Origin: an uncultured Bacilli bacterium
GTDB taxonomy: Bacteria > Bacillota_I > Bacilli_A > RF39 > UBA660
DNA: 64,000 bases
Direction of reading: 5' to 3'
NCBI GenBank assembly: GCA_934096945.1
Contig: CAKOND010000004.1
Coordinates: 18,569 to 82,568, forward strand
Shown: piece by piece, positions 1 through 25,526 of the stretch
How positions within the stretch are numbered: the stretch's first letter is position 1
How the letters are laid out: each line of letters begins with the position of its first letter
Made by a program: the position numbers and the translations under genes
The notes under the pieces: generated by a model
What the model saw: the letters and a program-made list of their open reading frames with translations, nothing else
Told to the model about the DNA's origin: nothing
Databases searched by the model: none

Positions 1-1130
1 ACTATACATTTAAATATATTACGGAAGATGAAGTGGATAACTTTGTGGAACCGGTAGCTCCGGAAGAAACTAAAGAAATGGAAATAGAGTGGAATACTAA
101 TTTAAATCCAAAGTTTACTTTTGATAATTATGTAGTTGGGAACTCAAATAGACTTGCGTTTGTAGCGGCGAGGGCTGTTGCAGAGGCACCTGGTACTATT
201 CATAATCCATTATTTATATATGGAAGAAGTGGAATAGGGAAAACACATTTGATGCAAGCAATAGGTAATTATATAAAAGACCATTCTAAATTAAAGGTAT
301 TATATACCACAAGTAATGAGTTTAGAGATGAGTTTACGGGAATTGCCACAAGTAATAATAAGATAGGGTATGCTAATGATTTTAAGAATAAATATAGGAA
401 TGTAGATGTTCTTATTATAGATGATATACAGTTTCTAGTGGAAGCTGAGAAAACTCAACAAGAGTTTTTCCATACATTTAATGCTCTCCATCAAGCTAAT
501 AAACAAATTATTATAAGTAGCGATAAGAGTCCAGATGACCTTAAGAAAATAGAAGAGCGGCTTAGAAGTAGATTTATGTGGGGACTTCCTGTTGATATTT
601 ATCCTCCGGATTTTAACTTAAGATGTGATATAATAAGGTCGAAGGTTAAAAATACGAGTATTGAGGATAAGTTAAATGAAGATGTAATAGAATATATTGC
701 TAATTCATGTGTCAATGATGTAAGGCACATTGAAGGAACTATAAATAGGTTGCTTGCTTACACAGCAATGATGGTTCCTGAGAAAATAACACTCGATTTT
801 GCTAATGAGGCACTTAATGATTATGTTAATACTAACATATTTATCAACAATTCGATTGCTTCAATACAAAGTGCTGTTGCAGAATACTTTAAAATATCGG
901 TTGATGATTTGAAAAGTAAGAGAAGAACTAATACAGTTGTAAGGCCAAGACATATAGCAATGTACCTTTGTAGAGTGGAAACAGATGAAAATTTACAGAA
1001 AATAGGACTTGAGTTCGGGGGAAGAGACCACTCAACAGTATCTACAGCAATTGATAAGATAAAAGAAGAGTTAGAAACTAATCCTAATCTTAATAATATG
1101 CTCAAAGAAATTAAAATGAAGTTACAATAA
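1..1130 (+). CDS. dnaA: Chromosomal replication initiator DnaA, N-terminus cut off by the window edge
   Basis: ORF 33..1130 has an AAA+ Walker A (GRSGIGKTHL), Walker B (LIIDDIQF) and a C-terminal DnaA-box-binding HTH. The frame is open back to base 3 and domains I-II are missing, so the true start lies upstream of the window. Confidence 0.9.
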   Translation, partial: YTFKYITEDEVDNFVEPVAPEETKEMEIEWNTNLNPKFTFDNYVVGNSNRLAFVAARAVAEAPGTIHNPLFIYGRSGIGKTHLMQAIGNYIKDHSKLKVLYTTSNEFRDEFTGIATSNNKIGYANDFKNKYRNVDVLIIDDIQFLVEAEKTQQEFFHTFNALHQANKQIIISSDKSPDDLKKIEERLRSRFMWGLPVDIYPPDFNLRCDIIRSKVKNTSIEDKLNEDVIEYIANSCVNDVRHIEGTINRLLAYTAMMVPEKITLDFANEALNDYVNTNIFINNSIASIQSAVAEYFKISVDDLKSKRRTNTVVRPRHIAMYLCRVETDENLQKIGLEFGGRDHSTVSTAIDKIKEELETNPNLNNMLKEIKMKLQ

Positions 1131-1191
1131 TGTTGATAATTTGGGTAAAAAAAATACAGAATATTAAAGAAAAATAGTAAATAAATAGTGG

Positions 1192-1200
1192 TTATCCACA
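1192..1200 (+). promoter_or_regulatory. Perfect DnaA box TTATCCACA in the dnaA-dnaN spacer, next to a very AT-rich stretch (oriC part 2-like)
   Basis: Exact 9-mer consensus in gtggTTATCCACAttaat. The surrounding 130-bp spacer is more than 85% AT, a candidate DNA-unwinding element. Confidence 0.55.
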
Positions 1201-1259
1201 TTAATAACACCACTAATAAATAATAATAATTAATAACATAAAGAAAGAAGGAATAAAAA

Positions 1260-2378
1260 ATGAAATGGACAATTGAAAAAAATGTAATTTTAGAAGCTTT
1301 AAATAATGTTACTAAAGCTTTAAGTCAAAGGACTACAATACCAGTACTTAATGGGATAGTATTTGATGTTAGTGAAAAGGGAATAGAACTACTTGCTAGT
1401 GATTCAGAACTTACTATAAAGGTTCTTATTAGTCATGAAAATATAAAGATGCTTGAAGGAAAAGGTAAAATTATTATTCAAAGTAAATATTTTGTTGATA
1501 TGATAAGAAAGATGCCTAGTGAGAATATCGATTTTGAAGTTGAAGATAACTTAAAGATTAAAATTAGTACACCAAATAACCAATATAGATTAAATTGCTA
1601 TAATCCAAGTGATTATCCAAATATAAATATAGAAAAAAGTGATGATGCTATTAATATTAAATCTGAAGTTTTAAGAGAAATAATTAATCAAACTTCTTAT
1701 GCATTATCAACTCAAGAAGTAAGACCTTTATTAACAGGTATTAACTTTAAAATAAATGGAGATATTTTAGAATGTATTTGTACTGATTCTTACAGATTAT
1801 CTAAGAAAAATATTAAGTTAGATGTACCTAGTAGTAAACAAGTTAATATTGTTATTCCAGGAAGAAGTATTACTGAACTTGAAAAAATTATAGCTGAAGA
1901 TGATAATGTGGAAATCTATGTATTTACTAACAAAATATTATTTGTTTATAAAAATATTTATGTTCAAAGTAATTTACTTAGTGGAAGTTATCCAGAAACT
2001 AGTCACTTTATTCCAAATGACTTTGCATATATGATAAATTTAAATATGAAAGAATTCTATGATGCAGTTGATAGAGCAGCATTACTTGCTCAAAATAAGG
2101 AAAAAAATATTATAAAGATGCATATTCAAGATAAAGATATGGTTATTACATCAACAAGTAATGAATTAGGTAATGCTGAAGAAAAATTACATATTGATAG
2201 TAATAATAAAGAAAAGATTGAAGTATCTTTCTCAAGTAAGTTTATGATGGATGCATTAAAGGTTATTAAAGAAGAGAATATTTTACTTCTTCTTAATACT
2301 GATGATAAGCCAATTTTGATTAAACCAGTTACTGATGAATCACTTACTGAGCTTATTTTACCTATTAAAACATATTAA
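1260..2378 (+). CDS. dnaN: DNA polymerase III beta sliding clamp
   Basis: 372 aa. Position right after dnaA and sequence typical of beta clamps (three-domain repeat, C-terminal LILPIK-like tail). RBS gaaggaa precedes the ATG. Confidence 0.92.
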   Translation: MKWTIEKNVILEALNNVTKALSQRTTIPVLNGIVFDVSEKGIELLASDSELTIKVLISHENIKMLEGKGKIIIQSKYFVDMIRKMPSENIDFEVEDNLKIKISTPNNQYRLNCYNPSDYPNINIEKSDDAINIKSEVLREIINQTSYALSTQEVRPLLTGINFKINGDILECICTDSYRLSKKNIKLDVPSSKQVNIVIPGRSITELEKIIAEDDNVEIYVFTNKILFVYKNIYVQSNLLSGSYPETSHFIPNDFAYMINLNMKEFYDAVDRAALLAQNKEKNIIKMHIQDKDMVITSTSNELGNAEEKLHIDSNNKEKIEVSFSSKFMMDALKVIKEENILLLLNTDDKPILIKPVTDESLTELILPIKTY

Positions 2379-2479
2379 TTTTAAGAAAAATTGAACAAAT
2401 TTGCGTTTGTTCTTTTTTTTCGACAAATTTTGCACTTTCTTTGTGGTAAGATAACAAATTAATGAAGGAGGTGCTCATT

Positions 2480-2902
2480 TTGTTTAAAATTGATAAGGAA
2501 GTTCTTATGATTGATTATGACGGGCTTAATACAAATGTTACAACTACTTATGGCGATGTTGTTTTTAGGGGAAATAATATTAAAAATATTTTAAATGAAA
2601 GCTGCATTAGTTTTGGAAGTAGTTTAAATGGCAGAATAAAGGGAAGTAAATGGGCTTTAAAAAGTAAATATAAGCTGCCAGTTGTAGTTAGTGAGAAAGA
2701 AAAATTAGTTTTTTTTCCTGTTAAAGAGATGGGAAGAGAAATATGGGTTAATTTTGATATGATAAAAGAAGTAAAAAAGAATAAAAATGTGGTAAAAGTA
2801 GAGTTTAAAAATGGTTTAAAAGTGGATATAAATGTAAGTTATACAATTTTTAATAACCAAGTTTTGAAAGCTAGTAGATTGTGGATAATTTTTTTAACAT
2901 AA
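2480..2902 (+). CDS. ComK-family competence transcription factor-like protein
   Basis: Matches ComK in blocks: CISFGSSLNGRIKGS versus CRFFGSSYAGRKAG, KLVFFPV versus QIFLFPT, VSYTIFNNQVLKASRLW versus ISYNSFENQVYRTAWL. The likely start is TTG at 2480, 8 nt after RBS AAGGAGG. The ORF-track start at 2462 is inside the RBS. Confidence 0.6.
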   Translation: MFKIDKEVLMIDYDGLNTNVTTTYGDVVFRGNNIKNILNESCISFGSSLNGRIKGSKWALKSKYKLPVVVSEKEKLVFFPVKEMGREIWVNFDMIKEVKKNKNVVKVEFKNGLKVDINVSYTIFNNQVLKASRLWIIFLT

Positions 2903-3024
2903 ATGTGAAGAAAAATGTAACTTTTTCTTTAAAATGGGGCTAGATTGTGATATAATTAATATGTGTATAGGTATACCAAAATAGCTTTAATTTTTAATAT
3001 AGGGCTACTTAAGGGGGTAAATTA

Positions 3025-6040
<3,016 letters not shown>

Positions 6041-6049
6041 GAGGTTAAT

Positions 6050-8545
6050 ATGGATCATAGTAGAGATAGATTACAAGAAAATAATATTGTAAGTGAAATT
6101 GAATCGTCTTTTATTGAGTATTCAATGAGTGTTATTATTTCCAGAGCTTTGCCGGATTTAAGAGATGGTTTAAAGCCAGTTCATAGAAGAATTATTTATG
6201 ATATGTTAGAAAATGGTTTGACACCAGATAAAAAACATCGTAAAAGTGCTACGATAGTTGGGGATGTTATGGGGAAATACCACCCACATGGTGACTCATC
6301 AATTTATGATGCTATGGTAAGAATGGCACAAGACTTTAACTATCGTTATTTACTTGTTGATGGACATGGTAACTTTGGTAATATTGAGTATCCTAGAGCT
6401 GCTGCTTATCGTTATACTGAAAGTAAACTTGCTAAGATATCAATGGAACTTTTAAGAGATATCAACAAAAATACTGTTAATTTTGTACCAAATTATGATG
6501 ATTCTACGGTAGAACCTGAAGTTTTACCTTCAAGATTTCCAAATATTTTAGTTAATGGAACAATGGGGATTGCTGTTGGTATGGCAACAAATATTCCACC
6601 ACATAATTTAGGTGAAGTTGTTGATGGTTGTATTGCTTATATTGATAATCCTGATATTACTACGGAAGAGTTAATGCAACATATTAAGGGTCCAGATTTT
6701 CCAACTGGTGGCATTATTTTAGGTAATTCTGGAATAAAAAAAGCTTATGAAACTGGTAGAGGTTCAATAACTATTAGAAGTAAGGCAACAATTGAAGAAA
6801 AAAATGGAAGACATTATATTGTTATTGAAGAAGTTCCTTATGGTGTTAATACACTTGATTTAAAACAAAAAGTTGCAGATTTAGTACATAACAAAGTACT
6901 TGAAGGTATTACTGATTATCATACTGATTTAAAAGATGGTATTAAAATAACTATAACGCTTAAGAAAGATGCTAATCCTCAAGTAGTTTTAAATAATTTA
7001 TATAAGCATACGGCTTTTCAAACAACTTTTGGTATTATTTTCTTGATGCTTGATAAAGGTGTACCTAGAACTTTAGGTTTAAAAGATATAATTAGTAAAT
7101 ATGTAGATTATCAACAAGAAGTTATTATTAGAAGAACTCAATTTGAATTAGATAAAGCTGAAAAGAGAGTACATATCTTAGAAGGTTATAAGATTGTGTT
7201 TGATAATTTAGATGAAGTTATTAAAATTATTAAAGAATCTAAGGCTGATGGAGAAGCTAAATCTAAGTTAATGGCACGTTTTGGATTAACTGAAGCTCAA
7301 ACTGATAATATTTTAGAAATGAAATTACGTCGTTTAACGGGTCTAGAACGTGAAAAGATTGAAGAAGAACTAAATACACTCAGAATCGAAATAGAACGCT
7401 TACGTGGTATTTTAGCGGATAATAATAAGGTGTTAGGCATCATTAAAGATGAAATGACTGAAATTAAAAATAAATATGGTGATGAAAGACGTACTAAGAT
7501 TGATATGACTGCGGTTGATTATATTGAAGATGAATCTTTAATTCCAGAAGAAAATATATTGGTAGTACTTACTAACAAAGGTTATATTAAGAGAACTACT
7601 GCTGATACATTTAAGTCACAAAATAGAGGTGGCGTTGGAATTAAGGGAATGTCTACGAATGATGAAGACTTTGTTGAACACATGATTAACTTATCAACAC
7701 ATGATTATATCTTGTTCTTCACTGATAAAGGTAAAGTATATAGACTTAAAGGTTATGAAATTCCTGAGTTTTCACGTCAATCTAAGGGTATTCCAATTGT
7801 AAATTTACTTCAAGTTGAAAAAGATGAAAGAGTTAATGCTGTTATTCAAATAAGTCGTGAAGAGAATAGTAAATACTTGTTATTTGCAACTGAATCTGGT
7901 GTTGTTAAGAAGACTTTAATTAGTGAATTTGATAATATTAGAAATAGTGGTAAGATTTGTATTTCTTTAAGAGAAAACGATAAACTTATTGGTGTTAAGA
8001 AGACTTCTGGTAATGATTTAGTGCTTCTTGGTAGTGATAGTGGTAGAATGGTTAAGTTTAATGAAGATGAAATCAGAGTTATGGGACGTACTGCTTCAGG
8101 TGTTCGTGGTATTTCACTAGATGGAAGTAAATGTATTTGTTCTGAAATTGTTAAAGAAGATGATACTATTCTTCTTGTAACTGAAAAAGGTTATGGTAAA
8201 CAAACTAAGGTTAGTGAATATCGTCAAACTAGAAGAGGTTCTAAAGGTGTTAAAGCCATGAATATTACTGAAAAGAATGGTAATTTAGTAAGTGTTAAGA
8301 TTGTTCATGAAGGCAAAGAACTTGTTATCATGACAAACTCTGGTATGACAATGAGAATGCCACTTGATCAAATATCTGTTCTTGGTAGAGTTACGCAAGG
8401 TTTAAGACTTATTAATTTAAAAGATAATCAAAAGGTATCTACGATTAGTTTAGTAGATAAACTAGAAGAAGAACCTTCTCAAGAAAGCATAGAACAAGGT
8501 GAAAATGTTGCTCAAAATGAATCAGAAGCAACTGAAAATATTTAA
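6050..8545 (+). CDS. gyrA: DNA gyrase subunit A
   Basis: 831 aa. Active-site region [14 protein letters not shown] (catalytic Tyr), the QRDR-like [13 protein letters not shown], a C-terminal beta-pinwheel repeat region and an acidic tail. Confidence 0.93.
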
Positions 8546-9961: not shown

Positions 9962-10046
9962 TTTAGACGTGCAACAAATATGCTGTAACTTGGTCAGGAT
10001 TGGAAAATAGCAGCCACATCAGCCTATGTTTGTGTGCACATTTTTT
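9962..10046 (+). ncRNA. ffs: Small (4.5S-type) signal recognition particle RNA
   Basis: Contains the conserved SRP domain IV helix-8 signature GGUCAGG-auu-GGAA-aau-AGCAGCC (compare E. coli 4.5S GGUCAGGUCCGGAAGGAAGCAGCC). Terminal helix GUGCAACAAA/UUUGUGUGCAC, then a U8 tract. Sits just upstream of dnaX as in Bacillus (scr-dnaX). Confidence 0.6.
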
Positions 10047-10058
10047 TTGGAGGAAAAC

Positions 10059-16172: not shown

Positions 16173-19100
16173 ATGAAGTTTTTAGATGAATATTTTAAAT
16201 ATGAAATTGGAACGGAAATATCTGGTTTAACTAATGAGTTAAACGTTTTTTACGTTGATAAATTAAGTGAAAAGTATGATAGAAATATAATTGTTCTTAC
16301 AAGTTCTTTGTTTGAAGCTAATAAAATATATGATAATTTAGTTAAAATACATGATAATACTTTACTATTTCCGATGGATGATTTTTTGTCATCAATGTTA
16401 GTGGCAAGTAGTCCCGAACTTAAGTATAAAAGACTTGAAACTTTAGATAAATTAAAAAGTGATAATAGATATATTATAGTTACAAACTTAATGGGATATT
16501 TAAAATATTTACCTAGTGCTAGTATTAAAAATTATATTGATATTAAGAAAAATGGTATTATTAAACGTGATGATTTAGTTAAAGAAATAGATGCCTTAGG
16601 TTATCATCGTGAGTCTTTAGTTACAATGTCCGGTGAATATGCTGTTCGTGGATTTATTTTAGACTTGTATCCGATTGATTATGTTCATCCGGTTAGAATT
16701 GAATTTGATGGTAATGTAATAGATAATATTAAATACTTTGATGAAAATACGCAGATGTCAAATGATGATATTCATGATATTAAAATTAAAGCTATTGATG
16801 AAATGGTATCAAGTGATAAAAATTCTTTATTTGATTATGCAGAAAATCCTTTGGTAGTTTATGTAGATAAATCTCAGATTGAAGCATCATACTCAAAGTT
16901 ATTTGATGATATATCGGAATATAAAGAGTCAAATGAAATTAATGAAGATTTGATGTATTCCTTAGATGATATTCATGATAATGATAGAATATATGTAAAT
17001 TTATTTTCAAGTGGGAGTTTAAATTTAAAAGCACAAAGTATTATAAATTACAAAGAAAATTTTGAAAAATTGGCTGCTGATTATGATGCTTGGATTGCGA
17101 GTGGGAAAATAGTATATTTTTATTTAAGTAAAGTAGAAGAAAAGAAAAAGTTACTTAAGATTATACCTAGTGCTCATGTAGTAATGAAAGAATTATCTCA
17201 TGGTTTTATACTGGATAAATATGTAGTTATTTCTGAAAATGATATTGAAGATGTAAAAGTAAGTAATGGAGTTTATAAAAATAATTTCCATGTTGGTAAA
17301 AGAATAAAGGACTTTAATCAACTTGAAAAAGGAGATTATGTTGTACATATTTCTCATGGTATTGGTATTTATCAAGGAATTACTACGCTTTCTGTTCGTG
17401 GTGTTCAAAAAGATTTTTTAACAATATTTTATGAGGGCTCAGATAAGATTTATGTTCCGGTTGAAAAAATTAATTTAATTTATAAATATACTGGTAAGGA
17501 TGGAATAAAACCAAAACTTAATAAACTTGGAAGTACAAATTGGGAAAAAACTAAAAAATATATTTCTGAAAAAGTAAAAGATATTTCAAGAGAACTTATT
17601 ATTCTTTATAAAAAAAGATTGGAACTTAAAAAGAAACCATATAAAGATTATCCTGAAGAAGATGTGTTTGCTAGTGAATTTAAGTATGCCCTTACGGTAG
17701 ACCAAGCTAAAGCAGTGTTAGAAATTAATAATGACTTAAAAAAAGATAATCCAATGGATAGATTATTATGTGGAGATGTAGGTTTTGGTAAAACAGAAGT
17801 TGCAATGAGAGCAATGTTTAAGGCAGTTTTAAATAATGAACAAGTACTTTATTTGTGTCCCACTACAATACTTTCAAAACAACAATATAATGTGGCAAAA
17901 GAAAGGTTTAAAAATTGGCCTGTAGAAATAGCGCTTTTAAATCGACATGTAAGTGTTCGAGAAACTCATAGAATACTTGAAGATTTAAAAAAAGGGAAAA
18001 TAGATATATTATTTGGTACTCATAGAATACTTAGTGATGATATCGTTTGTAAGAATTTAGGGATGCTTGTGGTTGATGAAGAGCAAAGATTTGGAGTTAC
18101 GCACAAAGAAAAAATAAAAACTATGAAAAGTGATGTTAATGTTTTAACTTTAAGTGCAACTCCGATACCTAGAACTTTAAAGATGGCGATGTCAGGTCTT
18201 AGAGATTTATCAGTTATTGATACACCACCAGTTAATAGATATCCTGTTCAAACTTATGTAGCTGTTGAAGATGACTTTTTAATTAAAGATGCTATTTATA
18301 AAGAACTTGCTAGAAAAGGACAAGTATTTATTCTTTATAATAGGGTGGAAACTATTGAAAAATATATGAATCATATTCATGAGTTAGTGCCTGATGCTAA
18401 AATAAATTTTGCGCATGGAAAAATGGAAAAAGATGAACTTGATAATATAATGACATCTTTTATAAATAATGAGTTTGATATTTTGATTTGTACAACAATA
18501 ATTGAAAGTGGAATTGATATACCAAATGTTAATACACTAATTATTCATGATGCTGATAATTTTGGTTTAAGTCAGCTTTATCAAATACGTGGTCGTGTCG
18601 GTCGTAGTGATAAGGTTGCTTATGCATATTTAATGTATGAAAAAAATAAAATGCTTAATGATATTGCAATTAAAAGACTTAATACTATTAAGGAATTTAC
18701 GGAACTTGGTAGTGGATATAGAATAGCAATGAGGGATTTAAGTTTGAGAGGTGCAGGTGATGTATTTGGAGCTTCTCAGGCAGGTTTTGTTGATAGTGTT
18801 GGAATTTCACTTTATATGAAAATGATTGAAGATGAAATTAAACGTCAACGTGGAGAAACTGTGGAAGAGGAAGATACTGATACTCAAGCTTTAATTAACG
18901 TAAATACTCATATTAGTGATACCTATGTATCTGATGAAGATATTAAAATTGAAATACATCAAAAGATTAATGAAATTGACTCTTATGAAAAGATGTTAAA
19001 AATTAAAAATGAGTTAGAAGATAGATTTGGTAAAGTTACTCCAGATATGCTTGTTTATATGTACGAAGAATGGTTTGAAAAACTTGCTAAAAAATATAAC

Positions 19101-19322
19101 ATTAAACAAGTTGTTCAAACAGATAGAAGTATTGAAATTACATTACCTGAAGAAATATCAAGTAATATTAAAGGTGATAAGCTTTTAATCGAGGCTATGA
19201 ACTTATCAAGAAGTTTTAATATAAAATATGTTAATAAGAAAATTAGTATTTTGCTTTATACAAAAGATTTACCTAAACATTTTATATTTTATATAGTAAC
19301 TTTACTTGAAAAAATACTTTAA
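16173..19322 (+). CDS. mfd: Transcription-repair coupling factor Mfd
   Basis: 1049 aa with a UvrB-homology module, RNAP-interacting domain, DEAD/DEAH translocase (GDVGFGKTEVA, DEEQRFG) and a TRCF C-terminal domain. pth-mfd-spoVT order as in Bacillus. Confidence 0.9.
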   Translation: MKFLDEYFKYEIGTEISGLTNELNVFYVDKLSEKYDRNIIVLTSSLFEANKIYDNLVKIHDNTLLFPMDDFLSSMLVASSPELKYKRLETLDKLKSDNRYIIVTNLMGYLKYLPSASIKNYIDIKKNGIIKRDDLVKEIDALGYHRESLVTMSGEYAVRGFILDLYPIDYVHPVRIEFDGNVIDNIKYFDENTQMSNDDIHDIKIKAIDEMVSSDKNSLFDYAENPLVVYVDKSQIEASYSKLFDDISEYKESNEINEDLMYSLDDIHDNDRIYVNLFSSGSLNLKAQSIINYKENFEKLAADYDAWIASGKIVYFYLSKVEEKKKLLKIIPSAHVVMKELSHGFILDKYVVISENDIEDVKVSNGVYKNNFHVGKRIKDFNQLEKGDYVVHISHGIGIYQGITTLSVRGVQKDFLTIFYEGSDKIYVPVEKINLIYKYTGKDGIKPKLNKLGSTNWEKTKKYISEKVKDISRELIILYKKRLELKKKPYKDYPEEDVFASEFKYALTVDQAKAVLEINNDLKKDNPMDRLLCGDVGFGKTEVAMRAMFKAVLNNEQVLYLCPTTILSKQQYNVAKERFKNWPVEIALLNRHVSVRETHRILEDLKKGKIDILFGTHRILSDDIVCKNLGMLVVDEEQRFGVTHKEKIKTMKSDVNVLTLSATPIPRTLKMAMSGLRDLSVIDTPPVNRYPVQTYVAVEDDFLIKDAIYKELARKGQVFILYNRVETIEKYMNHIHELVPDAKINFAHGKMEKDELDNIMTSFINNEFDILICTTIIESGIDIPNVNTLIIHDADNFGLSQLYQIRGRVGRSDKVAYAYLMYEKNKMLNDIAIKRLNTIKEFTELGSGYRIAMRDLSLRGAGDVFGASQAGFVDSVGISLYMKMIEDEIKRQRGETVEEEDTDTQALINVNTHISDTYVSDEDIKIEIHQKINEIDSYEKMLKIKNELEDRFGKVTPDMLVYMYEEWFEKLAKKYNIKQVVQTDRSIEITLPEEISSNIKGDKLLIEAMNLSRSFNIKYVNKKISILLYTKDLPKHFIFYIVTLLEKIL

Positions 19323-19376: not shown

Positions 19377-19889
19377 TTGAAACAAACTGGTGTAACGAGA
19401 AAAATAGATGAACTTGGAAGAATAGTTATTCCTAAGGAAATTAGAAAAAACTTAGGTATTAGGGATGGTGAGGCTTTAGAAATATTTACTAGTGAAGATA
19501 GTATAATATTAAAAAAATATTTTGAAGTTAGAAAGTATGAAGATTTAAGTAGTAAATTGTGCGAGCTTATTAAAAATATTTATAATGTTGATTTAGTAAT
19601 TACGGATAGAGAAAAGGTGATTACTTCTTCGAATAAGGATATTGTGGAAAACACTAAACTTAATAACAAATTTTTAGATCTTATTGATAATAGAGAAATG
19701 TTTATAAGTAGGGAAATATTAACAATAAATTTAGGTATTGATATAAGTGGATATTTTACAGTTATACCTATTATTGCATCAAGTGACTCATTGGGGCTTG
19801 TTATAATTATAAGTGATAATGCTAATGATTATAGTTCTTTGGGTAAGTTACTAGCAAAGATTATTGCTGATAAAATTGATATATTTTAA
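19377..19889 (+). CDS. spoVT: Stage V sporulation regulator SpoVT (AbrB-N swapped-hairpin domain plus GAF-like C-domain)
   Basis: N-terminus MKQTGVTRKIDELGRIVIPKEIRKNLGIRDGEALEI matches the AbrB/SpoVT DNA-binding domain. The 170-aa length and the position after mfd fit SpoVT. TTG start after RBS GGAGTG. Confidence 0.75.
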   Translation: MKQTGVTRKIDELGRIVIPKEIRKNLGIRDGEALEIFTSEDSIILKKYFEVRKYEDLSSKLCELIKNIYNVDLVITDREKVITSSNKDIVENTKLNNKFLDLIDNREMFISREILTINLGIDISGYFTVIPIIASSDSLGLVIIISDNANDYSSLGKLLAKIIADKIDIF

Positions 19890-19924
19890 CTTGAATTAAA
19901 CTAAGATTTATGATAAACTAGTTT

Positions 19925-20125
19925 TAATTAACGAAGAAGGAAAGAGTAGATATCATTCATTTCATAGAGATTTCTTGGTTGGTGGAAAAGAAAAAATGAA
20001 GATATTCGAACATGGCTCTGGAGTTAAAATCGGGTAATTACGTTATAGATTTTAAGTTGCATGATAAATCATGAATTAAGGTGGTACCGCGGGTTATACT
20101 CGTCCTTAGTTTGTGATTTTTTTTT
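19925..20125 (+). promoter_or_regulatory. T-box riboswitch leader (probable Met specifier) upstream of dut-metG-tatD
   Basis: 20074-20093 AATTAAGGTGGTACCGCGGG matches the T-box consensus AATTAGGGTGGNACCGCGG at 18 of 19. A 16-bp helix (20066-20081 with 20104-20119) is followed by a T9 tract at 20117-20125. Upstream there is a candidate stem I with AGAGA and an AUGA specifier-like triplet at 19996-19999. Confidence 0.6.
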
Positions 20126-20135
20126 GGAGGTAAAT

Positions 20136-20633
20136 ATGAGAAAGTTTGAAAAAATAAGTTATCCTGAATTTGTTAAAGTTTTTGGAGATAATAAAACTTT
20201 ATATGATGATTATATGCTCCCTTTAAGAGGGACAAAATGTAGTGCAGGTTATGATTTTTTTGCCATAAAAGATTATGTTATTAAACCAAATGAGATTGTG
20301 AAGATACCGACTGGTTATAAAGCTGCTTTTGAAAGTGATGAAATGCTTATGATTGTGGTAAGAAGTAGTATGGGTTTTAAATATAATGTAAGACTTACTA
20401 ATCAAGTGGGAATTATTGAAAGTGATTACTATAATAATTCAGATAATGAAGGTCATATGTGGGTATGCTTACAAAATCATGATGATAAAGAATATATAAT
20501 AAATAAAGGAGATGCTTATGCCCAAGGGATTTTTGTTAAATTTTTAATAACTGATGATGATAAAGCTGATGCAGTTAGAACTGGTGGCATAGGTAGTACA
20601 AATAAAAAGAAAGAAGGAAATAAAAATGAATAA
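20136..20633 (+). CDS. dut: dUTP diphosphatase (trimeric dUTPase family)
   Basis: The SAGYDFFA motif and beta-rich fold are typical of dUTPases. The true start is ATG 20136 (MRKFEKI) after GGAGG. The ORF-track start at 20061 would run through the T-box terminator. Confidence 0.7.
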   Translation: MRKFEKISYPEFVKVFGDNKTLYDDYMLPLRGTKCSAGYDFFAIKDYVIKPNEIVKIPTGYKAAFESDEMLMIVVRSSMGFKYNVRLTNQVGIIESDYYNNSDNEGHMWVCLQNHDDKEYIINKGDAYAQGIFVKFLITDDDKADAVRTGGIGSTNKKKEGNKNE

Positions 20634-22158
20634 AAAATATTACATAACAACACCAATATATTATCCAAGTGCAAATTTTCATATTGGTCATTGTTATACA
20701 ACTATAATAGCGGATGCTATTGCAAGATATAAAAGATTAAATGGATATGATGTGTTTTTTCAAACTGGAACTGATGAACATGGAGCAAAAATTGAACAAA
20801 AAGCAAAGGAAGCTGGTGTAACACCAAAGGAATATGTTGATGTTATAATTGAAAATGCTAAAGATTTATGGAAAAGTTTAAATATATCTTATGATTATTT
20901 TATTAGAACAACTGATGAAAATCATGTTAAAGCTGTGCAAAAAATATTTAAAAAATTATATGACCAAGGGGATATTTATAAAGGTTCTTATGAAGGTCTA
21001 TATTGTGTTCCCTGTGAGTCCTTTTGGACTGAAACTCAACTTGTAGATGGAAAATGTCCGGATTGTGGAAGAGATGTTAAAACTGTTACTGAAGAAGCTT
21101 ACTTCTTTAGATTATCAAAATATCAAGATAAATTAATTGAATTATATGAAAATAATCCTGAATTTATTTTACCTGTTTCAAGAAAGAATGAGCTTGTAAA
21201 TAACTTTATTAAACCAGGACTTGAAGATTTATGTGTGTCAAGAACATCAGTTAAATGGGGAATTCCTGTAGATTTTGATCCAAAGCATGTAATTTATGTA
21301 TGGATTGATGCTTTATCAAACTATATTACATCTTTAGGTTATCCAGATGAAAATGCTCCATTATTTAAAAAGTATTGGCCAGCTGATTTACATTTAGTAG
21401 GTAAAGAAATTACAAGATTTCATGCTATTATTTGGCCAGCACTTCTTATGGCTTTAGATTTACCACTTCCAAAACAAGTATTTGGTCATGGATGGCTTGT
21501 TATAAATGGTGGTAAGATTTCTAAGTCACTAGGCAATTATAAAGACCCAAGAGAATATATTGATGCTTATGGTGTTGATGCTGTTAGATATTTTGCTTTA
21601 AGGGAAGTATCTTTTGGAAGTGATGGCGCTTTCTCTGAAGAAGCCTTGATTAATAGAACAAATGCAGATTTGGTAAATAATTTAGGAAATTTAGTTAATA
21701 GAACAATAAGCATGAGTCATAAATATTTTGATGGCGTGGTAGAAAATCCAAGAGTAAATGAAGAAATTGATAATGACTTAATTAGTGCTGTTACAAGTTT
21801 AAAAGCAAAAGTTGATGAAAAAATGGATGGTTTAAAAGTTAATGAAGCTTTAGAAGAAATATTTGAAGTTTTAAAAAGATGTAATAAATATATTGATGAA
21901 ACTACACCATGGATACTTGCTAAAGATGAGACTAAACATGATAGATTAAAAACAGTTTTATATAATATTTTAGAAAGTATCAGAGTATGTGCTATACTTC
22001 TTGAACCATTTATTAATGTTACAAGTGAAAAAATATTAAATGAACTTAATACAAATGAAAGAAGTATTGAAAGTATAAGTGAATTTGGTAATTTAGAATG
22101 TGGAATTACATTAAATAAACCTGAGATATTGTTTAATAGGATTGAAGTAAATGGATAA
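20626..22158 (+). CDS. metG: Methionine--tRNA ligase (short form)
   Basis: HIGH motif (ANFHIGHCYT), KMSKS (KISKSLGN) and a zinc knuckle (CVPCESF..CPDCG). The start overlaps the dut stop. Confidence 0.92.
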   Translation: MNKKYYITTPIYYPSANFHIGHCYTTIIADAIARYKRLNGYDVFFQTGTDEHGAKIEQKAKEAGVTPKEYVDVIIENAKDLWKSLNISYDYFIRTTDENHVKAVQKIFKKLYDQGDIYKGSYEGLYCVPCESFWTETQLVDGKCPDCGRDVKTVTEEAYFFRLSKYQDKLIELYENNPEFILPVSRKNELVNNFIKPGLEDLCVSRTSVKWGIPVDFDPKHVIYVWIDALSNYITSLGYPDENAPLFKKYWPADLHLVGKEITRFHAIIWPALLMALDLPLPKQVFGHGWLVINGGKISKSLGNYKDPREYIDAYGVDAVRYFALREVSFGSDGAFSEEALINRTNADLVNNLGNLVNRTISMSHKYFDGVVENPRVNEEIDNDLISAVTSLKAKVDEKMDGLKVNEALEEIFEVLKRCNKYIDETTPWILAKDETKHDRLKTVLYNILESIRVCAILLEPFINVTSEKILNELNTNERSIESISEFGNLECGITLNKPEILFNRIEVNG

Positions 22159-22921
22159 TTATTTTGTTGATACACATTGTCATGTGTTTAAATCTGATTT
22201 TGAAAATATAGATGAAGTTTTAAAAAATGCAAATAATAATCATATAAAATATATTATTAACAATGGTAGTAATGATGAATCTAATAAAGAAGTACTTAAG
22301 CTTGTAGAAAAATACCCATGTATGTATGGTGCAATTGGTATTCATCCGGAGGATGTTGATGGTGTAAAACAAGAAGATGTCAAATTTATAGAAGATAATT
22401 TAGATAATAAAAAAATTGTTGCTATTGGTGAAATTGGTTTAGATTATCACTATACAAAAGAAAATAAAGATGAACAAGTTAAATTATTTGAAACTCAATT
22501 AGCTTTAGCAGAAAAATATAATATGCCCGTGATTGTGCATTCAAGAGATGCAACTGGAGATACAATTAATTCTCTCAAAAAATTTAATTGTAAAGGTGTT
22601 ATTCATTCTTTTTCTGGAAGTTTAGAAACTGCTAGAATATATATTAAAATGGGATATATGCTAGGTGTTAATGGTGTTATAACTTTTAAAAATGCTAAGA
22701 TAAAAGATGTTATTAAAGAAGTTGGACTTGAGCATATTGTTTTAGAAACTGATAGTCCATATCTTACTCCAGAACCATTTAGAGGAAAACAAAATAATCC
22801 TGGCCATGTGCTAGAAGTAGCTAAATTTGTAGCTAATTTGTATAGTGTTTCTTTAGAAGAACTTGCAATTCAAACTAATAAAAACGTTACGGATACGTAT
22901 AAAAAGATGAAGTTAGATTAA
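22151..22921 (+). CDS. tatD: TatD-family metal-dependent DNase/hydrolase (YabD)
   Basis: N-terminal DTHCH metal-binding motif and TIM-barrel hydrolase sequence. metG-yabD synteny. Confidence 0.88.
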   Translation: MDNYFVDTHCHVFKSDFENIDEVLKNANNNHIKYIINNGSNDESNKEVLKLVEKYPCMYGAIGIHPEDVDGVKQEDVKFIEDNLDNKKIVAIGEIGLDYHYTKENKDEQVKLFETQLALAEKYNMPVIVHSRDATGDTINSLKKFNCKGVIHSFSGSLETARIYIKMGYMLGVNGVITFKNAKIKDVIKEVGLEHIVLETDSPYLTPEPFRGKQNNPGHVLEVAKFVANLYSVSLEELAIQTNKNVTDTYKKMKLD

Positions 22922-23413: not shown

Positions 23414-24877
23414 ATGAAAAAAAATATTTTGTTAGTTGGGTTATTATTATTAGTATTATTCATGCCAAATAAGGTATTTGCATTAAGTAATGATGAGATT
23501 ATTAATATAATAGCTACTGATGGAAAAAATGCGGTATTTAAAATGAAACAACCTACTAGTGAAAAGGAAGCAAAAGCAAATTTAAACAATTATGTTAATT
23601 ATGTATTACAGAATTATGGATATTTTGCAGATATTATATGTGATAATGAAACATATTCTAAATGTGATTTAAATATTTATAGTAGTGATTATGAATCATC
23701 TTATGATGCAAATCTTAAAGATTATGTAACTAAAAAGGGCTGGACAAGTAAGTATGCTATTAATGTAACTTATGATGCACCGAAAGACAATGAAAGTGTT
23801 AATAAAATTATAGACAATATTGCTGGCCTTCCTGAAGAGTGGGATAGAAATGATGTTCCTAAATATTATATTTTATCAGACTTATCCTTGATAAATTATC
23901 ATTATAATTACTCAAAATATTTAGATGATTTTGGAGGTTCTAAAACAGCATTAAAATATAGTTCTTTAAATAACTTTCTTTATGGAACTAATATAGAAGT
24001 TTATTTGGATCTTGTTACTGGAGAAGATGATCCAGAAAATATGATATACTTTGGATTTGGGCCGATGAGCATATTTTATGATGGGTATTTATATGCCACA
24101 AAAAATGAAGGTATTTATTTAAGGCAATTATTATATATTCCAGAAGATACTCCGGATACACCAGAAGATTATGTGAAAGCTGCACAAAAGAGAATTAATG
24201 ATTATTTAAAAAATGATTTTGTTAAAGTTACTTATGGAGGTAAAATTGCTGATATAAGACCTAATGAAGAAGATGTTTATATACCAATAAAAACAGATGG
24301 AAATTATTATGTTATTCATTTTGGTGATGATATGTTTATGTTTTATATTGTAAAAGGAAATGATGAACAATTAAAAGCGCCTGTATACTTAAGTAGTGAT
24401 ATAAATACAAATATAGAAGTTGAAACTAATGATTCATCAGTGCCTTTAGATACAACAATTAAAGTCAAAGATGTTACTTCTGAATTTACAAAAGAAATGA
24501 TTGGAACAGATAACTTTGTTTCTTATGATATTAAATTATATTCTAATAGTTTAGCAGCACACGTTGAAAAACTTGATTCTGGAACATTTGTTGTAAAAAT
24601 ACCTATACCAGAGATGCTAAATGGTAAAAAATTAATTGTTTATTATTTTGATGAGGATAATAATAAAATATCCTATGATGTTACCATAAAAAATGGGTTT
24701 GCTGAATTTAATACTAATCATTTTAGTGTTTATACTTTAGCTGAATACGAAGAAAATGTTAATGAAATTATTGAAAATCCTTCTACATCAGATAATATAT
24801 TATTGTATTTTACTTTAAGTTTATTAAGTGTTGTAGGAATATTTCTTGTTTCAAAAAAAATAATTAAAAATAATTAA
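23414..24877 (+). CDS. Secreted or cell-surface protein with signal peptide and C-terminal hydrophobic anchor
   Basis: The N-terminus (MKKNILLVGLLLLVLFMPNKVFA) is a signal peptide. The C-terminus (NPSTSDNILLYFTLSLLSVVGIFLVSKKIIKNN) has a hydrophobic helix plus a basic tail, sorting-signal-like but without LPXTG. Confidence 0.6.
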   Translation: MKKNILLVGLLLLVLFMPNKVFALSNDEIINIIATDGKNAVFKMKQPTSEKEAKANLNNYVNYVLQNYGYFADIICDNETYSKCDLNIYSSDYESSYDANLKDYVTKKGWTSKYAINVTYDAPKDNESVNKIIDNIAGLPEEWDRNDVPKYYILSDLSLINYHYNYSKYLDDFGGSKTALKYSSLNNFLYGTNIEVYLDLVTGEDDPENMIYFGFGPMSIFYDGYLYATKNEGIYLRQLLYIPEDTPDTPEDYVKAAQKRINDYLKNDFVKVTYGGKIADIRPNEEDVYIPIKTDGNYYVIHFGDDMFMFYIVKGNDEQLKAPVYLSSDINTNIEVETNDSSVPLDTTIKVKDVTSEFTKEMIGTDNFVSYDIKLYSNSLAAHVEKLDSGTFVVKIPIPEMLNGKKLIVYYFDEDNNKISYDVTIKNGFAEFNTNHFSVYTLAEYEENVNEIIENPSTSDNILLYFTLSLLSVVGIFLVSKKIIKNN

Positions 24878-24998
24878 AAATAATTAATAATTTAAAAATT
24901 AGAGTTAAAAACTCTAGTTTTTTTGTAAAATATTGTCAATTGCTTTATTAGAGTATTAATGTTATAATTTAGTTATCCAAGAAGGAGTGGATATCTAT

Positions 24999-25526
24999 AT
25001 GAAAGTAGCAAATTACTTTATTAGAATGTCAATTGTTATATTTATGTTTATAATTGCTAAAAGTAGTTCTGATACAAAAATTGCTTCAGTTGAAAATAAT
25101 AATGTTAATAAAACAGTTAATTTAACTACAATGGCAATGAAAATAATTGAAGTTGAAGATACGATAAAATATACACCAGTTGCTACATATACTGGAGATT
25201 TAACTGGTTATGCTTATAATTGTCCATTATGTAATGGTACACTTGGTTGTATGCCAAAATATAATATTAAAGATGGTACAACAACTTATAAAGATTATGA
25301 ATATGGAGAAGTAAAAATTGTGGCTTCAAGTAAAAATATAGCTTGTGGTTCAATTATTAGATTTAAAAGTAATAGAGTTGGTGAAGGAGAACAATTTGCT
25401 ATAGTTCTAGACCGTGGTGTCGGTGGCTATGCACTTGATTTACTTACACCAAGTGAGGAATATGCTTCTAAATATATTGGAAGAAGTAAAATAACATATG
25501 ATGTTTTAAGGAGCGGGTGGGAATAA
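24999..25526 (+). CDS. 3D-domain (MltA-like) cell-wall-binding protein (YabE/YuiC-like)
   Basis: C-terminal 3D domain with conserved Asp residues (...VLDRGVGGYALDLL...). Position before ksgA as for yabE in Bacillus. Start ATG 24999 after AAGGAGTGG. Confidence 0.7.
   Translation: MKVANYFIRMSIVIFMFIIAKSSSDTKIASVENNNVNKTVNLTTMAMKIIEVEDTIKYTPVATYTGDLTGYAYNCPLCNGTLGCMPKYNIKDGTTTYKDYEYGEVKIVASSKNIACGSIIRFKSNRVGEGEQFAIVLDRGVGGYALDLLTPSEEYASKYIGRSKITYDVLRSGWE

Follow-up and report, generated by a model that had tools for sequence, protein, structure and literature searches.

A T-box leader with a methionine specifier and a predicted nested terminator ahead of dut-metG-tatD in uncultured gut Bacilli

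T-boxes are textbook tRNA-sensing riboswitches and are antibiotic targets. In canonical T-boxes the 3' strands of the antiterminator helices A1 and A2 become the 5' strand of a terminator that is mutually exclusive with the antiterminator (PMC7583486, PMC10907184). Binding of the tRNA 3' end requires Stem III with its 5'-RRRxG/AA-3' purines; Stem III is stacked coaxially under A1, and the purines latch onto the duplex of NCCA and bulge only with uncharged tRNA (PMC7583486, PMC5570125, PMC12647780). When a mimic of charged tRNA is used, the bulge is still paired, but the linker comes undocked and Stem III shifts away (PMC12647780). The locus considered here lies in a stretch of 64,000 nucleotides (positions 18,569 to 82,568 of contig CAKOND010000004.1, assembly GCA_934096945.1) from an uncultured Bacilli bacterium, referred to below as the window, in which a T-box leader precedes genes for a dUTPase (dut), a methionyl-tRNA synthetase (metG) and a TatD-family hydrolase (tatD). 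Our reading, with a probability of about 0.7, is that this leader is a transcription-attenuating, methionine-specific T-box riboswitch of uncultured gut Bacilli related to Candidatus Onthocola, and that its terminator is nested around the antiterminator and competes with Stem III. T-box control of metG is ordinary; that dut comes under the same control is a minor curiosity.

The window leader shares most of its parts with the canonical transcriptional T-boxes (B. subtilis tyrS and glyQS; RF00230), namely a Stem I with K-turn region, S-turn specifier loop, AG bulge and distal loop, the F-box, a Stem III with RRRxG/AA flanks, an A1-UGGNACC-A2 antiterminator and, ahead of an aminoacyl-tRNA synthetase gene, a terminator with a U-tract. 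It differs in that A1 and A2 are kept inside the predicted terminator, whose competitor would be Stem III with the AA linker, and in that Stem II is missing although the specifier is not one for glycine. The translational ileS T-box of M. tuberculosis is akin to it in one respect: single-molecule data show that with charged tRNA the linker undocks and Stem III departs while the bulge stays paired (PMC12647780), and this is the signal that a nested platform would read; in the M. tuberculosis T-box, however, the 3' strands of A1/A2 sequester the Shine-Dalgarno (SD) sequence and Stem I is ultrashort, whereas the window leader has a hairpin followed by nine U (U9) and a long Stem I. The met-leader T-box of S. 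aureus (metICFE-mdh) likewise has an AUG specifier and senses tRNA-Met (PMC3771891), but its targets are methionine biosynthesis genes, it carries extra stem-loops in the linker and it prefers the initiator tRNA, while the target in the window is metG with dut and tatD. The dUTPase of PDB entry 3h6x has the same five motifs as the window dUTPase, which is set apart in that its gene opens a synthetase operon under T-box control. No description of a nested terminator was found in reviews, primary papers and TBDB, which give only the canonical arrangement; key T-box surveys lay outside this search, so a prior description is possible.

A covariance-model scan with Rfam matched RF00230 (T-box) to positions 19925-20110 of the plus strand over model positions 1-219, scoring 110.7 bits (E 1.3e-23) where the gathering score is 93, and this is the sole T-box of the window. 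An earlier note on this DNA had proposed a T-box before dut, and the scan bears it out; the T-box sequence, AATTAAGGTGGTACCGCGGG, can be read directly at 20074-20093. The leader and its parts are as follows.

19891-19919, plus strand: putative sigma-70 promoter, with -35 TTGAAT at 19891-96, a 17-nt spacer and an extended -10 TGaTAAACT at 19911-19 (sequence reading)
19925-20110, plus strand: T-box leader with Stem I, F-box region, Stem III and antiterminator, and without Stem II (RF00230 alignment)
20008-20015, plus strand: 3' side of the specifier loop, GAA-C-AUG-G, with specifier AUG (Met) at 20012-20014 followed by the purine G20015 (covariance-model alignment)
20054-20075, plus strand: Stem III, CAUGA 20060-64, loop UAAA and UCAUG 20069-73, with purine flanks AAGUUG 20054-59 and AA 20074-75 (RF00230 alignment)
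20078-20107, plus strand: antiterminator, with A1 AAGG 20078-81/CCUU 20104-07, bulge UGGUACC 20082-88 and A2 20089-94/20098-103 (RF00230 alignment)
20066-20125, plus strand: predicted nested intrinsic terminator, a 12-bp extension 20066-77/20108-19 below A1, around the bulge and A2, with U9 at 20117-20125 (minimum-free-energy fold and covariation)

The S-turn halves AGAGUA and GAA (20008-10) are present in Stem I, and the codon with its following purine stands at the 3' end of the specifier loop; it is this reading of the loop that fixes AUG 20012-20014 as the specifier. The earlier note had the right codon in the wrong place: the AUGA string at 19996-19999 is real, but in the covariance-model alignment it falls within distal Stem I, on the 3' strand, which rules it out as the specifier. 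A methionine-responsive specifier fitting metG, as had been supposed, is supported by the relatives, where AUG plus purine occupies the column in 27 of 28 aligned metG leaders. The AG bulge AGAGA and the distal loop GGUUGGUGGAA, which make up the tRNA-elbow motif, match the model consensus with high posterior probability, and the F-box region CGG...CGUUA is retained. Stem III reads AAGU(U)G-CAUGA/UCAUG-AA, in keeping with 5'-RRRxG/AA-3' flanks, and the antiterminator reads AAGG-UGGUACC-GCGGGU...ACUCGU-CCUU, in keeping with A1-UGGNACC-A2; the UGGU of the bulge fits a tRNA with A73. These parts identify 19925-20110 as a true T-box leader with the methionine specifier AUG.

The RF00230 alignment deletes model positions of about 106-133, and neither Stem II nor the Stem IIA/B pseudoknot was found in the window leader. 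Both are present in most non-glycine T-boxes, and a lack of Stem II is textbook only for glycine T-boxes. Methionine T-boxes without Stem II occur in the window (20021-20059) and its clade, and farther metG leaders (loci L017, L018, L048, L073, L035 and L050) keep an insert at this place. The putative promoter starts right after the stop codon of spoVT, and its columns CTTGA...TGnTAnAAT are kept in the relatives' leader alignment; a consensus promoter scanner gave nearby only TTAACT/TATGAT, a pick no better than chance from a tool that is uninformative in AT-rich DNA.

The fold of 20050-20140 has as its minimum-free-energy structure the helix 20066-81/20104-19 (-22.1 kcal/mol, z -2.85), which encloses A1 (20078-81/20104-07), the bulge (20082-88) and A2. 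It is the same helix that had been noticed from the letters as including A1 and ending in T9. The nested fold has -20.0 kcal/mol, Stem III plus antiterminator has -9.8, and the antiterminator alone has -6.3. The 5' strand of the extension combines the Stem III 3' strand with the linker between Stem III and A1, including AA 20074-75, and the 3' strand follows directly after A1 and runs into U9. In folds of the growing transcript Stem III is the first to form; extension of A1 through the linker follows, and Stem III gives way as soon as 20112-20116 emerge. No hairpin joins the A1/A2 3' strands with downstream sequence in folds of 20040-20140 and 20050-20140 or by eye, and these strands are thus not the terminator 5' strand of a canonical platform in the window leader; the distance from A1 to the U-tract is just 8 nt, which leaves no possibility of building a canonical terminator there. 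Sequestration of the SD, looked for in folds of 20040-20140 and by eye, is limited to CCUU/GAGG, 4 bp. A consensus terminator scanner returned the A2 hairpin only; it requires at least three G-C pairs and is therefore blind to the A/U-rich extension. The nested terminator is probably a structural variant of the T-box expression platform, well supported and with a plausible mechanism, and we strongly infer that switching is non-canonical.

Comparison with relatives supports this structure. Scanning species-representative genomes with metG gave 80 loci, the closest of which are metagenome-assembled genomes (MAGs) of uncultured gut Bacilli, including Candidatus Onthocola (Bacilli incertae sedis), "Tenericutes" UMGS bins and Clostridium sp. 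CAG:1193; the metG product of the window is 95% identical to that of L001. The Rfam cut-off is passed by the leaders of 15 of the 20 closest metG loci, and by L201. The nested fold is the minimum-free-energy structure in the window, L001, L002, L004-L015, L017 and L019, and was recognised by eye in L003. Ordinary terminators, formed by the 3' half of the antiterminator with downstream sequence, are present in L016, L018, L020, L028, L048, L065, L073, L078 and L079; as the farther metG leaders carry these ordinary terminators, the nested form replaces a canonical one.

Covariation was assessed in an alignment of 17 nested orthologous leaders from species-level genomes. The 12-bp extension is 97.1% paired and has six pairs with changes on both sides, and the whole nested structure has 12 pairs with compensatory changes. 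None of 500 shuffles equals the observed values, and registers slid along the alignment are 37-54% paired. Stem III is 98.8% paired, with four of its five pairs changed on both sides, while A1 and A2 are 97-98% paired, also with compensatory changes. Stem III and the extension share alignment columns 25-29, the 3' strand of Stem III, so that the two helices are mutually exclusive and both covary through this strand, which is the signature of a switch. The AA of the linker, the specifier and the bulge are invariant, and the U-run abuts the helix in all 17 nested relatives, whatever the distance to the SD. The leader of dut-metG-tatD therefore carries two mutually exclusive covarying helices.

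Other metG leaders vary in these parts. The leader at L020:1-260, from a MAG labelled Mycoplasma, has GUG at the aligned specifier and lies below the Rfam cut-off; it may be misaligned or a divergent leader. The metG T-boxes at L035:2766-2965, L040 (the same sequence there) and L050:2778-2974 score above the Rfam cut-off (108.5 and 102.1 bits) without a Stem III, having 2-3 nt in place of 19 Stem III model positions. Their terminator pairs the A1 5' strand and first six bulge nucleotides (AAGGUGGUAC) with downstream GUGUCACCUU, followed by a U-run. Stem III is said to be present in all T-boxes identified so far (PMC11404447).

The pairing partners of the extension are exactly the Stem III 3' strand and AA 20074-75, which is invariant, and we therefore propose that uncharged tRNA-Met blocks the zipping of A1. 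Stem I would present AUG to the anticodon of tRNA-Met, and UGGU of the bulge would pair with the ACCA end. The terminator would be the antiterminator itself, with A1, bulge and A2 kept, lengthened downward by 12 bp into U9. In the OFF state, whether the tRNA is charged or absent, neither Stem III nor its purines would be docked, and A1 could zip through the linker, displace the 5-bp Stem III and reach the U-tract, leading to termination. In the ON state, with uncharged tRNA-Met, Stem III would stack under A1 and the purines would latch in the minor groove of the NCCA/bulge duplex, so that the terminator strand would be held, the zipping of A1 blocked, and the polymerase could read through into dut, metG and tatD. 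Both the tRNA-dependent switching and the termination at the U-tract are inferred.

A similar layout can be found in other T-boxes. A metagenome scan for TAAGGTGGTACCGCG returned 120 T-boxes, of which 108 could be classified, in a sample biased towards AT-rich A1 sequences. An ungapped complementarity score separates the classes poorly, being weakly bimodal (7 of 113 at 10 or more of 12 positions, none when shuffled), and was replaced by a minimum-free-energy criterion with shuffled controls. Under the strict form of this criterion (A1 kept, bulge open, at least six extension pairs, helix end at most 3 nt from the U-run), 14 of the 108 have the nested layout, compared with 48 of 1080 controls (4.4%) in which the 32 nt upstream of A1 were shuffled (P about 3e-4). 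Ten of the 14 pass the Rfam cut-off. Together with L154 and L158, which count as nested under a looser classification, the nested leaders precede ileS, leuS, argS, aspS, hisS, gltX, another metG, HAD-pheS and a tyrosine phenol-lyase-like gene, and where their specifiers are readable (AUC, CUU, CGC, GAC, GAA, AUG, UAC) these match the downstream gene. It is conceivable, at somewhat less than even odds, that nested-terminator T-boxes are a distinct and unrecognised platform class, in which antiterminator and bulge persist in the OFF state and docking of Stem III and AA against extension of A1 decides, serving many synthetase genes in AT-rich, reduced-genome gut Bacillota. Such a class would be a natural experiment in which docking of Stem III, rather than formation of the antiterminator, is the primary read-out of tRNA charging. 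Among the individual leaders, L110 (T-box motif position 74, plus strand) has a nested-terminator T-box ahead of a HAD-like gene and then pheS, and L111:1203-2900 is a tryptophanase/tyrosine phenol-lyase-like open reading frame (ORF) behind a nested T-box with a UAC (Tyr) specifier, an unusual catabolic target for a T-box.

Several points weigh against a terminator that competes with Stem III. A/U-rich flanks pair readily by chance, as the roughly 4% of nested shuffled controls illustrate, and some of the metagenomic hits may be chance. The pairs of the extension are nearly all A-U and G-U, which is weak for an intrinsic terminator, and only about 12 nt of transcription separate completion of A1 from completion of the terminator. 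A1, bulge and A2 remain in the OFF fold, which tRNA might therefore also be able to bind. The window holds no tRNA-Met gene against which the discriminator base could be checked. A quite unlikely alternative is that the nested hairpin forms in both states and a tRNA held at the bulge, 4 bp above the extension, sterically stops its closure in the RNA-exit channel without any competition of strands. That A1, bulge and A2 are common to both folds and that the bulge is exposed in the terminator fold would suit such a model; however, the terminator takes for its 5' strand exactly the 3' strand of Stem III and the AA latch, all three strands covary, and an antiterminator without Stem III binds no tRNA appreciably (PMC7583486).

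Control could also be translational, or act at both levels, with the U-tract a mere spacer and the switch hiding or exposing the GGAGG of the SD in the way of the actinobacterial ileS T-boxes. The SD of the window, at 20126-30, follows directly on U9, and very weak extra pairs reach the SD in the 20050-20140 fold (about -1.4 to -2 kcal/mol). We consider this very unlikely, as there is no conserved anti-SD (CCUU/GAGG is 4 bp across a 19-nt loop), the helix with its U-run has the geometry of an intrinsic terminator, and in relatives the U-run stays by the helix while the SD lies 5-100 nt beyond (L004, L005, L009, L017). The least probable explanation, and a highly improbable one, is that the extension arose by chance or from the composition of its A-rich and U-rich flanks, in a decaying or constitutive T-box whose canonical competitor was missed. 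The shuffled controls and the weak bimodality of the complementarity score described above would be expected under it. The compensatory changes in six extension pairs and four Stem III pairs across 17 species-level genomes, and the invariance of specifier, bulge and AA latch, argue against it, and before the SD there is neither room nor sequence for a canonical terminator. If competition with Stem III is indeed how this leader works, it would lend independent evolutionary support to a view that has come from recent structural and single-molecule work, with the Stem III/purine latch as the real charge sensor. It would also offer a very compact discriminator-terminator module of about 60 nt for engineering, and annotation pipelines that assume a canonical terminator could mis-assign nested leaders.

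The genes that follow the leader form an operon of three.

20126-20633, plus strand: SD GGAGG at 20126-30 and dut (ATG 20136, TAA 20631-33), 165 aa, trimeric-type dUTPase (Pfam and PDB alignment)
20626-22158, plus strand: metG, methionyl-tRNA synthetase of 510 aa (Pfam tRNA-synt_1g 1.2e-115, Anticodon_3)
22151-22921, plus strand: tatD-family hydrolase gene (Pfam TatD_DNase 2.1e-75)

The dut product matches PF00692 (1.4e-11, 44.7 bits against a cut-off of 22) and aligns over residues 23-156 with the trimeric dUTPase of 3h6x (E 1.8e-29), with all five dUTPase motifs present (SAGYDF, VRSSMG, GIIESDYYNN, AYAQGIF, RTGGIGST). On these sequence grounds the ORF is assigned as encoding a trimeric dUTPase, as the earlier note had called it; the ATG lies 5 nt past the SD and 43 nt, not 40, past the T-box sequence. 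The succession of dut, metG and tatD with overlapping ends likewise stands, but the proposed 4-nt ATGA overlap does not: direct reading gives 8 nt between dut and metG (ATGAATAA), as follows from the dut stop at 20631-33 and the metG start at 20626, and likewise 8 nt between metG and tatD.

The placement of dut within a tRNA-sensing metG operon is found again in relatives. The order T-box-dut-metG(-tatD) occurs in at least 11 species-level gut Bacilli genomes, and among the metG loci in L001, L002, L007, L008, L013, L017, L018, L073 and L078. Among 7999 dUTPase homologues found, the closest is 90% identical, and P0065, 67% identical to the window dUTPase, also stands in a T-box-dut-metG-tatD order, behind a divergent penicillin-binding-protein gene. 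The comparison of metG leaders also revealed other contents of this slot: T-box-CinA-domain gene-dut-metG in L011, T-box-HAD hydrolase-dut-metG in L012, and T-box-HAD-metG in L003, L010 and L014, while the T-box is immediately before metG in L004-L006, L009, L015, L016, L019, L020 and others. By Pfam the slot genes are HAD_2-family hydrolases (L003:2376-2987, L010:2349-2972, L012:1873-2502, L014:671-1159) and a CinA-domain gene (L011:2034-2498). As the first gene of a Met-T-box operon, dut is thus conserved yet dispensable, in a slot that takes other housekeeping genes, and because the content of the slot differs among relatives (dut, HAD, CinA or nothing) dut is most likely a passenger of the operon without a specific methionine link. 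A specific physiology, for instance a supply of dUMP and thymidylate coupled to one-carbon or methionine status, would agree with the conservation of T-box-dut-metG and of the 8-nt coding overlap in lineages whose upstream neighbours differ and whose dUTPase identity is 57-93%. It is judged unlikely, since near relatives have no dut there or have a HAD hydrolase or CinA-domain gene instead, and a Pfam scan detected no further folate or thymidylate gene in the dut-metG-tatD operon. T-box-controlled synthetase operons may thus acquire unrelated housekeeping genes (dut, HAD, CinA), which would then be regulated by tRNA charging.

Upstream of the leader lie mfd (16173-19322) and the SpoVT-like gene (19377-19889). 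Downstream, between tatD and a ksgA-like methyltransferase gene, two ORFs at 23414-24877 (487 aa) and 24987-25526 (179 aa) have no Pfam match. The start of the window (33-8545) holds ORFs of 365, 372, 657 and 831 aa, which by size and order alone we take to resemble dnaN-recF-gyrB-gyrA, and the region may presumably be origin-proximal. A bacterial small signal recognition particle RNA is located at 9963-10048 (RF00169, 56.8 bits).

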